From NCBI RefSeq assembly GCF_001677475.2, contig NZ_CP015229.1: DNA of 64,000 nucleotides; one strand, written 5' to 3'. Under the pieces are notes generated by a model. That model saw only the letters and a program-made list of their open reading frames with translations, had not been told where the DNA came from and did not search any database. A program made the translations under genes and the position numbers. Shown here piece by piece: positions 36,749 to 56,350 of the stretch (the first letter of the stretch is position 1; each line of letters starts with the position of its first letter). The stretch is from Escherichia coli (GTDB taxonomy: Bacteria; Pseudomonadota; Gammaproteobacteria; Enterobacterales; Enterobacteriaceae).

Positions 36749-36904
36749 GGCGTACTTTCTCTGCTGTAATGGTATGGGCGTTTTTGTGCACACAAATCCG
36801 GCAGTGACACAAGGTGAACTATTAAATAGAGGGGGCGTGAAAGGGGCAAATTATTAATAGGGTGAAAAAATAATTAAATTATTAAAGGGTGAGGTATCAG
36901 GCAT

Positions 36905-37020
<116 letters not shown>

Positions 37021-37134
37021 CATTGTTTAAACTAAAATAATATTTTTATTATCGTTTAATTCAAACTTATTAAGCCTGCCGGTGATACGCTTCAGAACAT
37101 CCTGATTATTGTCGCTACTTATATCGTTCACCCT

Positions 37135-38481: not shown

Positions 38482-40128
38482 ATGAATGCACAAATAAAGA
38501 AGTTAACCCAGGCGTTTCCGGCGTTTCGACTGCGTCTCGCAGATAACAAACGCTGGGCGCTGATGGCGGTAGTGGGGCTTGCCGTGGCGGCAACGGCGAT
38601 TATCGTCAGCGTGCTGTGGACCGGTAATCGCGGCTACGTCTCGCTCTACGGACGCCAGGAAAATCTGCCCGTGTCGCAGATTGTCACCGTGCTGGATGGC
38701 GAAAAGCTCAGCTACCGCATCGACCCGCAAAGCGGGCAGATTCTGGTGCCGGAAGATGAACTGTCGAAAACGCGCATGACCCTTGCTGCCAAAGGCGTGC
38801 AGGCGATATTGCCCAGCGGCTACGAGCTGATGGACAAAGACGAAGTGCTCGGCAGCAGCCAGTTCGTGCAGAACGTGCGCTACAAACGCAGCCTCGAAGG
38901 GGAGCTGGCGCAGAGCATCATGTCGCTGGACGCGGTGGAGAGCGCGCGGGTGCATCTGGCGCTCAACGAAGAAAGCTCGTTTGTGGTCAGCGATGAGCCG
39001 CAAAACAGTGCCTCGGTGGTGGTGCGTCTGCACTACGGCGCGAAGCTGAATATGGACCAGGTGAACGCCATTGTGCATCTGGTTTCCGGCAGCATTCCGG
39101 GGCTGCACGCCAGCAAAGTTAGCGTCGTCGATCAGGCGGGAAATCTGCTAACCGACGGCATTGGCGCGGGCGAGGCGGTTTCTGCCGCTACCCGTAAACG
39201 CGATCAGATTCTCAAAGACATCCAGGACAAAACCCGCGCCAGCGTGGCAAACGTGCTGGATTCGCTGGTCGGCAGCGGGAATTACCGCGTCAGCGTGATG
39301 CCGGATCTCGACCTCAGCACCATCGACGAAACCCAGGAACACTACGGCGACGCGCCGAAAATCAACCGCGAAGAGAGCGTGCTGGACAGCGACACTAACC
39401 AGGTGGCGATGGGCGTGCCCGGTTCGCTCAGTAACCGTCCGCCGGTTGCGGCGAATCAGATGACCAACGGTACGGAAGAAAACCGCTCGCCGGAAGCGTT
39501 ATCCAAACACAGCGAAAGCAAGCGCGATTACTCTTACGACCGCAGCGTCCAGCATATTCAGCATCCCGGGTTTGCGGTGAAACGCCTCAACGTGGCGGTG
39601 GTGCTCAATCAAAACGCCCCGGCGCTGAAAAACTGGAAGCCGGAGCAGACTGCGCAACTGACCGCGTTGCTGAACAATGCCGCCGGGATCGACGTCCAGC
39701 GCGGTGACAATCTCACCTTATCGCTGCTTAACTTTGTGCCGCAGGCGGTGCCGGTCGAACCAATTATTCCGCTGTGGAAAGACGACAGCGTGCTGGCCTG
39801 GGTGCGGCTGATTGGCTGCGGCCTGCTGGCGCTGTTGTTGCTGTTCTTTGTGGTGCGCCCGGTAATGAAACGCCTGACGGCGGTACGTGCGCCGGTTATC
39901 CCGCCAGAACCGGAAGCCGTCAGCGAACCGTGGATCGCCATGCCGGAAGAGGAGCGCAAAAACGTCGATCTGCCGTCGCTACCCGGCGATGACAGCCTGC
40001 CGTCCCAGAGTTCCGGCCTCGAAGTAAAACTCGAGTTCCTGCAAAAACTGGCCATGAGCGACACCGATCGCGTAGCCGAAGTTCTCAGACAATGGATCAC
40101 CAGCAATGAGCGAATTGACAACAAATAA
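38482..40128 (+). CDS. lfiF: Flag-2 MS-ring protein LfiF (FliF homologue)
   Basis: 548 aa, TM near N-terminus and near C-terminus; FliF architecture. Confidence 0.9.
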   Translation: MNAQIKKLTQAFPAFRLRLADNKRWALMAVVGLAVAATAIIVSVLWTGNRGYVSLYGRQENLPVSQIVTVLDGEKLSYRIDPQSGQILVPEDELSKTRMTLAAKGVQAILPSGYELMDKDEVLGSSQFVQNVRYKRSLEGELAQSIMSLDAVESARVHLALNEESSFVVSDEPQNSASVVVRLHYGAKLNMDQVNAIVHLVSGSIPGLHASKVSVVDQAGNLLTDGIGAGEAVSAATRKRDQILKDIQDKTRASVANVLDSLVGSGNYRVSVMPDLDLSTIDETQEHYGDAPKINREESVLDSDTNQVAMGVPGSLSNRPPVAANQMTNGTEENRSPEALSKHSESKRDYSYDRSVQHIQHPGFAVKRLNVAVVLNQNAPALKNWKPEQTAQLTALLNNAAGIDVQRGDNLTLSLLNFVPQAVPVEPIIPLWKDDSVLAWVRLIGCGLLALLLLFFVVRPVMKRLTAVRAPVIPPEPEAVSEPWIAMPEEERKNVDLPSLPGDDSLPSQSSGLEVKLEFLQKLAMSDTDRVAEVLRQWITSNERIDNK

Positions 40129-47666: not shown

Positions 47667-47793
47667 AGGAGGCTTCCAGTCTTTAATGCTGAACAGGAAT
47701 TGCAATTACCGTGCCGGAAAATTTTTTAATATAAAACAAAGAATTGTTTTTCAGGCGGAAAATCCATTTCCGCTATGGGGGAAGGAATGGTCA

Positions 47794-48222
47794 TTATTCC
47801 TGATAAATAAAATCCGCTTCGCTGCCTAAAAAAGACTGAATAAATTCATACTGACGAATCAACAATTCACCGTTTTTATCGTTATACGCCTTACAGCGTT
47901 CGGCTTTTTGTTCAAGTCGTTGCCACAAGCGTTGTGCCGCCTCTTTTTGTACGGCGGGTAACCAGTTAAAAATCTGCTCTAAACCTTCCCGATTGACACT
48001 GACGCCGAGAAATTTCAGCAGGCTGTGGCGTTGTTGGCTGTGGCTGTTTAACTGATCGTAGTGATGCATTATCTCATCATTCACCGCCAGTAATTCCTCA
48101 CTCGCGCGGCGAATCATGCAGATCCGCTGACGATGGAGAAGTTCGCGCAGGGAATCGTAAAGCGCGTCATCGTCACGAATTCCCTGCAACAACGCCTTCA
48201 CCTGTTGTAACCGGATACTCAC
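47794..48222 (-). CDS. lfgN: Flag-2 chaperone LfgN (FlgN homologue)
   Basis: 142 aa, position after flgM homologue. Confidence 0.65.
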   Translation of the reverse strand: MSIRLQQVKALLQGIRDDDALYDSLRELLHRQRICMIRRASEELLAVNDEIMHHYDQLNSHSQQRHSLLKFLGVSVNREGLEQIFNWLPAVQKEAAQRLWQRLEQKAERCKAYNDKNGELLIRQYEFIQSFLGSEADFIYQE

Positions 48223-48234
48223 TTCATCGGCCTC

Positions 48235-48513
48235 TTAGTTCTGGAAAAAACTCAGCATGTCGCTGGCTAACTGTTCGGTGTCCACTTGCAGGCTGCCGGA
48301 GGCCAGCATCGCCTGCATTTGCTCCACTTTGTCGCTGTCGATATCGCTCTCTTGCTGGTCGTTCAGCGTTTGCTGGGCAGACTGCAATCCCGCCTGGGTA
48401 ATGTCGTCGGCGCTTAGCGTCGTGGTGGTGGTCGCTGTGCTTTTACGCGGCTGGCTGGAGCCTGCCGTTGTGGCTGTCGGGCGATTGCCTGGCATAGTCG
48501 GGGTGATTTTCAT
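48235..48513 (-). CDS. lfgM: Flag-2 anti-sigma factor LfgM (FlgM homologue)
   Basis: 92 aa; Thr/Ser-rich N-terminus and FlgM-like C-terminal helix region. Confidence 0.7.
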   Translation of the reverse strand: MKITPTMPGNRPTATTAGSSQPRKSTATTTTTLSADDITQAGLQSAQQTLNDQQESDIDSDKVEQMQAMLASGSLQVDTEQLASDMLSFFQN

Positions 48514-48593
48514 CGCAACCTCGTCTCGGTATTTAGGTGGGTTACTCCGGTAAAGCGGTTAACAGGCGGCAAAACTTTAATCGCCTGCGCAAA

Positions 48594-49331
48594 TTACTCC
48601 GCGCCTACCGTCGTCACCACGCCGCTTTCCGCCACCATCGCGCTGATGACCCGCTGGCTGCTGGCGTTACGTACTTTCACCATCTCGCCTTTGCGACCAT
48701 TTTTCAGCGCCACGCCGGGCATCGAGGCGGTGATCCCCGCGTTCTGGAAAACAATCATCACCGGCTGATCGCGCTCGACCAGCACCGGAGACACCAGTTC
48801 TTCTTTGGTAAGCGGCCTGCCTGGTTGCAGCGCGTGCTTACTGCTTAAACCAATCGCGTCATCGAGCTCCATCAACACATCGCGACGCTGGGCGCTGACG
48901 TTGTAGGGCTTCAGCTCCACATCATTCGCGGTGAGAGGCGTATCGCGGGCAATCAGTGACTTCGCCATCACCACCGGCACCAGAACATCCGGGCGCACCG
49001 CCACGTTCATCTGCCAGCTTTGCGGGCAACTGACGGTGAAGTTCATGCGGTTGAGGGCGATTTCCGCAGGCGATGTCAGCGTGACGCCGGGTGTTGTAAT
49101 ACAGGGCGCGGCGGTCGCAATCTGCGACGGAATATAGACCTTAAAGGTGTAGCGATAGTCATGCCATTGCCGCTGTTGCGCCAGCGATTCAATTTCCTGG
49201 CTCGCGGCATTCAGCACCTGGGCGTTGACTTGTTCCCGCGCGCTGTGTTGCACGGGGTGGACGGCGGCGTAGCCCGGTAAGGCCAGCACCAGGAGGAAGA
49301 ACAACTTCCGCCTGCAAAATTGAAAACTCAT
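48594..49331 (-). CDS. lfgA: Flag-2 P-ring assembly chaperone LfgA (FlgA homologue)
   Basis: 245 aa, signal peptide, FlgA-like C-terminal domain; divergent from lfgB. Confidence 0.8.
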   Translation of the reverse strand: MSFQFCRRKLFFLLVLALPGYAAVHPVQHSAREQVNAQVLNAASQEIESLAQQRQWHDYRYTFKVYIPSQIATAAPCITTPGVTLTSPAEIALNRMNFTVSCPQSWQMNVAVRPDVLVPVVMAKSLIARDTPLTANDVELKPYNVSAQRRDVLMELDDAIGLSSKHALQPGRPLTKEELVSPVLVERDQPVMIVFQNAGITASMPGVALKNGRKGEMVKVRNASSQRVISAMVAESGVVTTVGAE

Positions 49332-49360
49332 AAACCCTTTCTCATCAGTGACTTAAAAAA

Positions 49361-49376
49361 TGGCACGGCGATTGCT
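49361..49376 (+). promoter_or_regulatory. Sigma-54 (-24/-12) promoter candidate for lfgB operon
   Basis: TGGCAC-GGCGA-TTGCT matches TGGCAC-N5-TTGCW, about 35 bp upstream of the lfgB start. Confidence 0.55.
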
Positions 49377-49412
49377 TAGCGTATGCGTATTGAAGCAGGA
49401 GTGACGCAGGAA

Positions 49413-52979: not shown

Positions 52980-53115
52980 CGCACATCGTAGGCCGGATAA
53001 GGCGTTCACGCCGCATCCGGCAGTTATGCGGTGGCGCCTGATGCGACGCTTTGCGTCTTATCAGGCCTACAAGCCTGTGCCCAAACCGTAGGCCGGATAA
53101 GGCGTTCACGCCGCA
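52980..53115. repeat. REP cluster (three units)
   Basis: Three copies of GCCGGATAAGGCGTTCACGCCGCATCCGGC-type units in alternating orientation. Confidence 0.55.
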
Positions 53116-56231: not shown

Positions 56232-56350
56232 GAGGTGCACGCTGATGCCCTCACCCCGGCCCTCTCACTAGGAGAGGGAGCAGACTGGTGCCGTATTTAA
56301 CAATGTGCTCGATCGGTCCCCTCTCCCTTGAGGGAGAGGGTTAGGGTGAG
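56232..56350. repeat. GC-rich ~120-bp palindromic intergenic repeat (full copy, diverged centre)
   Basis: GCCCTCACCCCGGCCCTCTCACTAGGAGAGGGAG ... GAGGGAGAGGGTTAGGGTGAGGGGGC. Confidence 0.5.

Follow-up and report, generated by a model that had tools for sequence, protein, structure and literature searches.

Sequence comparison identifies three probable class 3 promoters in the Flag-2 lateral flagellar locus of this E. coli DNA, upstream of lfgMN, lfgKL and lafA. LafS, the Flag-2 paralogue of sigma-28, is most likely the subunit with which RNA polymerase reads them. For the window, by which we mean the whole 64-kb stretch that was analyzed, the outcome is a modest one: late promoters that a known cluster was expected to have are now placed at the nucleotide level.

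The Flag-2 (lateral-type, secondary) flagellar locus extends from about 30.5 kb to the end of the window at 64 kb. The stretch from 47700 to 49400 is about 92% identical to the Flag-2 locus found in 1279 of 5426 complete E. coli genomes, and in the genomes with the matching stretch the genes are annotated flgN, flgM and flgA; the window LfgI is 99% identical to LfgI of Pseudocitrobacter vendiensis and Escherichia whittamii. Gene order in the syntenic E. coli locus is lfhAB ... lafK ... lfgNMA/BCDEFGHIJKL, lafW, lafZ, lafA, lafBCDEF, a FliA/WhiG sigma gene (lafS), motA and lafU. The first gene behind the lfgM promoter is lfgM itself, which encodes an anti-sigma-28 factor (48235-48513, minus strand; Pfam FlgM, 40 bits against a cut-off of 25; E. 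coli orthologue annotated flgM), and it is followed by lfgN (47794-48222, minus strand; Pfam FlgN, 67.7 bits; E. coli orthologue annotated flgN). On the plus strand lie lfgK, for hook-associated protein 1 (56437-57804; Pfam FlgK_D1, 218 bits, and E. coli orthologue annotation), with lfgL next after it (57795-58748), and lafA, for the lateral flagellin (61129-62043; Pfam Flagellin_N, 119.9 bits, and Flagellin_C, 76.6 bits; E. coli orthologue annotated 'lateral flagellin LafA'). The first-pass annotation of this DNA had placed lafS outside the window, and by synteny this is where it would lie: the window stops in lafC, and in the syntenic E. coli locus (L001) lafS is found at 38843-39559, seven genes downstream of lafA.

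The lfgM promoter lies entirely within the 80-bp gap between lfgA and lfgM (48514-48593), which reads ...gcgaTTAAAGTTTtgccgcctgttaACCGCTTTAccggagtaaccc...gaggttgcgATG on the minus strand. Its -35 box, TAAAGTTT (48579-48572, minus strand), can be read directly, just as the first-pass annotation had reported an exact box on this strand, and its counterparts in all Enterobacterales orthologues read T(T/A)AAGTTT. After a spacer of 12 nt comes the -10 box ACCGCTTTAC (48550-48559, minus strand; octamer ACCGCTTT at 48559-48552, with its CG at 48557-48556), for which the orthologues have G(T/C)CGCTTT(T)A; the minus strand here reads gaTTAAAGTTTtgccgcctgttaACCGCTTTAccgg, and the octamer ends 38 nt ahead of the lfgM ATG (48513). 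Upstream of lafA, in the context ...cgaatttttttcatagcggtTTTAAGTTTgctcccgaggtGTCGTTTTTAcaggg... ahead of the ATG at 61129, a -35 box TTAAGTTT (61057-61064, plus strand; identical in 21 of the 32 listed lafA upstream regions) and a -10 box GTCGTTTTTA (61076-61085, plus strand; octamer GTCGTTTT at 61076-61083) are separated by 11 nt. The GTCGTTTTTAC of this -10 box is invariant from Escherichia to Citrobacter and Phytobacter, and the spacer varies. The earlier description of a GC-containing -10-like region following each -35 box after 11-12 nt thus holds for both genes; the lafA -35 box had been recognized as well, but at about 61047-61054, which is 10 nt too low.

The best of the three sites was absent from that annotation. 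It precedes lfgK, where the gap holds cacTTAAGAATccacaacctaacGCCGCTTTTAaccgg, which ends 30 nt short of the lfgK ATG, with a -35 box TTAAGAAT (56377-56384, plus strand; TTAAGAA is invariant in most orthologues), a spacer of 12 nt and a -10 box GCCGCTTTTA (56397-56406, plus strand); it is an exact instance of TTAAG-N17-CGYTTT, a pattern expected 0.09 times per window. The three -10 boxes, ACCGCTTTA, GCCGCTTTTA and GTCGTTTTTA, agree with one another far better than any of them agrees with the canonical GCCGATAA. If the CG corresponds to positions -13/-12, transcription would start near 48544 on the minus strand, 56412 and 61091, giving leaders of about 31, 25 and 38 nt, respectively. In sigma-28-type promoters the start lies some 7-8 nt past the -10 octamer. 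A sigma-70 promoter scan around the lfgM, lfgK and lafA sites gave no coinciding match at any of the three.

Scored against the canonical consensus TAAAGTTT-N10-13-GCCGATAA, the lfgM site matches at 12 of 16 positions and the lafA site at 11 of 16; 224 sites in the window pass the same loose filter, several of which outscore both, and the exact TAAAGTTT occurs 3 times against an expectation of 1.24. The first-pass annotation had called the matches weak, and by the FliA consensus this is right, as they are no better than chance; by the LafS-type consensus described below they are strong. Because the canonical consensus does not distinguish the lfgM and lafA sites from chance, we replaced it with a two-block weight matrix derived from orthologues, using 56 distinct sites of other genera and leaving the window and all Escherichia-like loci out of the training. 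The training sites were picked with a seed consensus, which somewhat inflates column conservation in the matrix but cannot account for the result in the independent window. Across both strands of the window (128 kb), the three highest scores fall on lfgK (30.1 bits), lafA (25.4 bits) and lfgM (21.2 bits), so that the sigma-28-type promoters first proposed for lfgM and lafA both exist as paired boxes and rank third and second. Over 100 simulated windows from a first-order Markov model, the highest score averaged 14.0 bits (sd 2.2) and was at most 19.8. Since the orthologue-trained matrix ranks the three sites first to third, above all 100 simulations, they stand far above chance; in the complete E. 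coli Flag-2 locus the lfgK, lafA and lfgM sites are again the top in-cluster matches.

Conservation was followed through a scan with LfgI of one-genome-per-species contigs, which returned 76 loci taken with 10-kb flanks; about 30 of the 76 are Enterobacterales Flag-2 loci, from Citrobacter, Phytobacter, Enterobacter, Pseudescherichia, Leminorella, Rahnella, Rosenbergiella and Tatumella. We extracted 160 nt upstream of the lfgM, lfgK and lafA orthologues, and nearly every such region contains T(T/A)AAG(T/A)(T/A)T followed, 17 nt (rarely 16) from its G, by the CG of G(T/C)CG(C/T)TTT(T)A. The best consensus match in the real upstream regions averages 14.97 of 18, as against 10.80 (sd 0.97) in shuffled ones. 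Motif and spacing persist in loci whose LfgM shares as little as 30-47% identity with that of the window; spacers and flanks drift. MAFFT alignments made blind to the motif lead to the same picture: conservation falls on the two boxes, an A/T tract, the ribosome-binding site and the ATG, and the spacers differ freely. The distance from the G of TTAAG to the CG is 17 nt in 52 of the 56 distinct sites and 16 nt in 3, which matches the N11/N12 geometry of sigma-28 promoters, and in most Enterobacterales loci the sites lie 27-92 nt from the start codons.

The A/T tract is represented at lafA by a T-tract at 61040-61046 (plus strand), 10 nt upstream of the -35 box and part of a conserved AAAAATTTTT-type tract that stands out as conserved columns in the motif-blind alignment of 15 loci. 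A tract of this type is found about 10 nt upstream of the -35 box at lafA in nearly all Enterobacterales loci, and at lfgM in Citrobacter; that at lafA resembles an UP element for the polymerase alpha subunit and may act as one. Some lafA genes have tandem LafS-type sites about 120-130 nt apart, as in a Citrobacter freundii strain (locus L017, 16424-16452 and 16541-16570) and in Rahnella laticis (locus L024, 16680-16709 and 16811-16840).

Canonical sigma-28 promoters follow the consensus TAAAGTTT-N11-GCCGATAA (PMC2859248) and conserve C-13 G-12 A T A A (10.1101/2020.01.02.893370). The -11A of the non-template strand flips into a cavity that the sigma-2 specificity loop forms and stacks there on a conserved tyrosine; no other non-template base is read in this way, and this flip is the key step of canonical promoter melting (PMC12784957). 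Much of this architecture recurs in Flag-2. As in the FliA class 3 promoters of E. coli and Salmonella, the sites are bipartite, with a T-A-A-G core, a spacer of 11-12 nt and a -10 box that begins G-x-C-G; they stand upstream of flagellin, hook-associated protein and flgM genes, in systems whose sigma factor belongs to the same FliA/WhiG family. The T-x-A-A-G core of the -35 box is present at lfgM (TAAAGTTT), lafA (TTAAGTTT) and lfgK (TTAAGAAT) and kept in the orthologues, and the spacing is likewise of sigma-28 type (12 nt at lfgM and lfgK, 11 nt at lafA; 16 or 17 nt from G to CG in 55 of the 56 orthologous sites). Unlike FliA promoters, those of Flag-2 mostly have TTAAG rather than TAAAG at -35 and a usual spacer of 12 rather than 11 nt, and above all their -10 box runs on as (C/T)TTT(T)A, not as ATAA. 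The CG is invariant (56/56) and a G stands two bases upstream of it in 53/56, the lfgM site of the window having A at that position; after the CG stands a C (34 sites) or a T (22 sites), never an A among the 56, and a T-run comes next. From the CG onward the window sites read CGCTTT, CGCTTT and CGTTTT, in place of the canonical -11A and TAA.

Since the -10 box continues as (C/T)TTT(T)A, the flipped -11A would have no counterpart in the Flag-2 promoters. The flipped position would be a pyrimidine if the CG sits at -13/-12, a register suggested by the distance of 16-17 nt from the -35 box to the CG as compared with 16 nt in FliA promoters; since the canonical N11 is usually exceeded by 1 nt, it could instead be the G of the CG that occupies the -11 pocket. 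The first-pass annotation had supposed that the lateral sigma factor may have a divergent -10 preference, and at the level of sequence comparison the systematic departure from GCCGATAA, together with changed residues in LafS, speaks in favor of this idea.

LafS of the E. coli Flag-2 locus is a FliA/WhiG-family sigma factor (NF009091, 447 bits against a cut-off of 339; TIGR02479, 200.6 bits against a cut-off of 189.6). We compared it with the sigma-28 proteins of E. coli and P. aeruginosa from the cryo-EM entries 6PMI and 9WSM, in alignments of 12 and of about 140 sequences. In FliA, R58 and R74 are reported to contact -13C, R91 the extended -10 element and R94 position -11, while R34 contacts the template -11T, R98 the template -12/-11, T69 the -9A and Q63 the -11A (10.1101/2020.01.02.893370). 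LafS-type sigmas keep the equivalents of R58, R74, R84 and R91, a set that serves -13/-12 and the extended -10, and those of R94, D81 and Y70. They change R34 to Q or H, R98 to H, and T69 to G, S, R, A or F, and the loop that carries Q63 is remodelled: D60 becomes G or P, G64 becomes D, and the Q63 position is P in most and also Y, M, L or Q, the common form being G-x-P-D-x-x-F, often one residue shorter. Region 4.2 ends in Q-L-H-K as opposed to Q-L-H-S/T/A. Most of the residues with reported -11/-9 contacts are therefore changed and those for -13/-12 (and R94) kept, a correlation that mirrors the retention of GxCG and the replacement of ATAA in the promoters. The R95Q and the region 4.2 Ser-to-Cys substitutions were ruled out as LafS-specific, being common across FliA homologues in the alignment of about 140 sequences; as some substitutions first thought to be specific to LafS are family-wide in this way, the structural argument is a correlative one.

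Related motifs accompany LafS-like sigmas beyond the Enterobacterales. A comparison of E. coli LafS with 1.84 billion representative proteins returned 21 at E <= 1e-30 and 5062 at E <= 1e-10; among the small high-scoring group are sigmas of Metapseudomonas otitidis, Shewanella piezotolerans WP3, Pandoraea and Photobacterium, encoded in lateral flagellar clusters that have the same order of genes. Shewanella piezotolerans has TTAAGTCT-N12-GTCGCTTCTA upstream of flgK (21.2 bits) and TTCAGTTT-N11-GTCGTTTTAT upstream of lafA (19.5 bits), and Photobacterium lutimaris has TTAAGAAC-N12-GTCGCCTTAT upstream of fliD (20.6 bits) and TTAAGGGG-N11-GTCGTTTTAT upstream of lafA. Aeromonas hydrophila lafA2 is preceded by TTCAAGTCT-N12-GTCGCTTCTC and the lafA of a Vibrio by TTAATCTT-N12-TCCGCCTCTA, the Vibrio and Aeromonas -35 variants being TTAAT and TCAAG, and beta-proteobacterial loci (Ideonella, Aquincola, Craterilacuibacter, Comamonas) show TTAAGTC...GGTCGCC upstream of flgK or flagellin genes. 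A more distant locus (L048) has the canonical TAAAGCTT-N11-GCCGATAA ahead of flgK, which means that the variant is not imposed by the procedure.

These data bear on how the boxes might be read other than by LafS. They could be ordinary weak sigma-28 promoters used by the primary FliA, with LafS having no distinct specificity and the two flagellar systems sharing control of their late genes. The -35 box, the spacer length and the GxCG start all follow the FliA layout, the two sigma factors are of one family, and the lfgM -35 box is the exact TAAAGTTT. The deviation from GCCGATAA is conserved, however, with none of the 56 sites having A after the CG, whereas canonical promoters conserve C-13 G-12 ATAA and flip the -11A as the key melting step. 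The motif also persists in Leminorella grimontii (locus L025), which reportedly lacks a flag-1 locus (PMC6993521), and in Aeromonas separate sets of genes are reportedly controlled by the polar and the lateral regulators (PMC4960245). Given the systematic absence of the -11A and the persistence in Leminorella, we regard general use by FliA as unlikely; some use at lfgM is possible because its -35 box is perfectly canonical.

Conservation alone would not separate a promoter from an operator, and lafZ, which adjoins lafA, encodes a protein with a Trans_reg_C DNA-binding domain (Pfam; an OmpR-type C-terminal domain protein), so that one may ask whether the boxes are binding sites for LafZ or LafK instead of sigma elements. 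This is very improbable, because the boxes are asymmetric, keep a fixed offset, look like sigma-28 elements and are present in clusters with no lafZ-like gene. The half-sites are dissimilar, with neither direct nor inverted symmetry, and stay 16-17 nt apart at 27-92 nt from the start codons in most Enterobacterales loci, resembling the sigma-28 -35 and GCCG; in Shewanella, where the motif is found, no lafZ-like gene is called between lafW and lafA; and LafK-type activators work together with sigma-54 at promoters of the form TGGCAC-N5-TTGC, present elsewhere, at lfgB and lafB. That the resemblance arose by chance and has no function can be considered negligible: many random window sites do equal the canonical scores of 12/16 and 11/16, but under the independently trained matrix the sites take the top three ranks above every simulation, and they are conserved across families and classes while neighboring bases drift.

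LafS-directed transcription of the three units also agrees with what is reported for other lateral systems. In Plesiomonas shigelloides, which has a lateral cluster of the same type, RNA-seq, qRT-PCR and lux fusions showed that FliA_L positively regulates fliC_L, flgMN_L, flgKL_L and the fliD...lafTU operon; the study gives neither a motif nor FliA_L binding (PMC11242183). The motif described here precedes the counterparts of fliC_L, flgMN_L and flgKL_L, whose expression is lost in a fliA_L mutant of that organism (PMC11242183). In contrast to the control of fliD...lafTU by FliA_L (PMC11242183), the matrix scan of the E. coli Flag-2 locus found no LafS-type site upstream of lafB or lafT. The published hierarchy has two tiers, LafK with sigma-54 and then the lateral sigma-28 (PMC4481668; PMC3930126). 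The same gene set and the same order of sigma-54 before sigma-28 link the present locus, known from its sequence, to the LafS/FliA_L class 3 genes of Vibrio parahaemolyticus, Aeromonas hydrophila and P. shigelloides. Its promoters of the sigma-54 type (TGGCAC-N5-TTGC) include TGGCACgccttTTGC upstream of lafB (62204-62219, plus strand), which by synteny heads the operon with lafS, and a perfect match upstream of lfgB (49361-49376, plus strand). Another lies at 47701-47716 (minus strand), upstream of a flagellin lysine-N-methylase gene of variable region 1, suggesting that the LafK tier extends to this cargo gene.

The most likely sequence of events is that LafK and sigma-54 would turn on the basal-body operons and the lafB...lafS operon, and that LfgM, by analogy with the FliA/FlgM paradigm, would keep LafS inactive until the hook-basal body can export LfgM. 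Free LafS would then fire lafA (filament), lfgKL (hook-filament junction) and lfgMN, the last of these closing a negative feedback loop like that of FliA/FlgM in Salmonella. In Salmonella, as Gillen and Hughes are said to have described in 1993, flgAMN and flgMN are transcribed from dual promoters, flgM lying downstream of flgA with its own sigma-28 promoter, so that the anti-sigma factor is autoregulated. Here too lfgM lies downstream of lfgA with its own late promoter immediately upstream; unlike the Salmonella arrangement, this promoter occupies a discrete 80-bp intergenic gap and has a LafS-type -10 box. The gene would have two sources of transcript, read-through from lfgA and the late promoter in the gap. 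The altered -10 box, finally, may keep the Flag-2 promoters separate from the FliA of the primary flagellum in the same cell.

The matrix scan also drew attention to lafK. The fourth-best match in the window (17.1 bits) is TTCAGAAC-N12-GTCGCTACTT at 37091-37120 (plus strand), in the lfiM-lafK intergenic gap (36794-37134) and ends 14 nt short of the lafK ATG; E. coli has this site as well, and it is unconserved at that position in Citrobacter, Leminorella, Pseudescherichia and Hafnia. In each of these four the lafK strand carries a match of 17-21 bits at a distance of about 80-100 nt from the start codon of lfiM and 270-510 nt upstream of lafK (688-717 in locus L082, 656-685 in L083, 898-927 in L084 and 659-688 in L085), with an A/T tract just upstream in three of the four and none in the Citrobacter locus L082. 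When each of these regions is shuffled, the fraction of shuffles that reach the observed score is 0 to 0.008. This suggests a LafS-type promoter pointing at lafK, which may create a positive feedback loop or may serve an unannotated transcript.

A wider generalization is tempting, and we offer it tentatively, judging it somewhat less probable than its alternatives taken together: within group 3 (sigma-28), the LafS-type sigmas may constitute a specificity class of their own, in which the near-universal flipped -11A gives way to a pyrimidine and a T-run that would be read by the remodelled loop (approximately G-x-P-D-x-x-F as compared with D-P-x-x-G-x-x-F-T), insulating the two flagellar systems of a cell at the promoter level, and in which a LafS-type promoter between lfiM and lafK may close a positive loop on LafK. 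Many Enterobacterales, Vibrio, Aeromonas and Shewanella have two complete flagellar systems that must not cross-activate, and a LafS consensus that departs from the FliA one at the bases used by canonical sigma-28 in melting would give a simple sequence-level explanation for their separation. It would also let the LafS regulon be predicted in any genome, including the cargo genes of Flag-2 variable regions, and FliA and LafS would be a natural pair for studying how a group 3 sigma picks the base flipped at -11. Sigma-28-dependent late promoters in lateral systems are already established; the nucleotide-level LafS consensus without -11A, its spread over gamma- and beta-proteobacteria and the matching sigma substitutions may be new. 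A full-text literature search found no statement of a LafS consensus, the key older papers on lateral promoters lying outside its reach, and priority is uncertain.

Several further features of the locus deserve mention. On the lafZ strand, about 190 nt ahead of that gene and within the divergent lafZ-lafA control region, TTAAGATT-N-CGCGTTTT (60881-60908, minus strand) is an exact TTAAG-N17-CGYTTT; with the full matrix its score is no more than 6.6 bits, since it lacks the G-Y ahead of the CG, and it is probably a chance match. The lafA leader (61086-61128, CAGGGTATCGAAACGAAAACGATTAATCCCAAGGAGCAGTATC) is almost invariant from Escherichia to Citrobacter, well past the ribosome-binding site, and contains GGA motifs; RNAalifold gave 0 consensus pairs for it, and with no consensus secondary structure the idea of a structured leader was dropped. 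The only Rfam match is to naRNA4 (CssrE), a REP-derived nucleoid-associated RNA family, at 52991-53067 (plus strand; 76.6 bits, gathering score 59.5) in the lfgF-lfgG gap. Between lfgJ and the lfgK promoter there is a long inverted repeat (ccctctccc...gggagaggg) that is missing in the E. coli and Citrobacter orthologues, where other insertions occur. Repeat elements are inserted in Flag-2 gaps at 62046-62090, 36930-37010 and 56240-56350, and REP/BIME-like palindromes occur after the lafA stop codon and before lafK.
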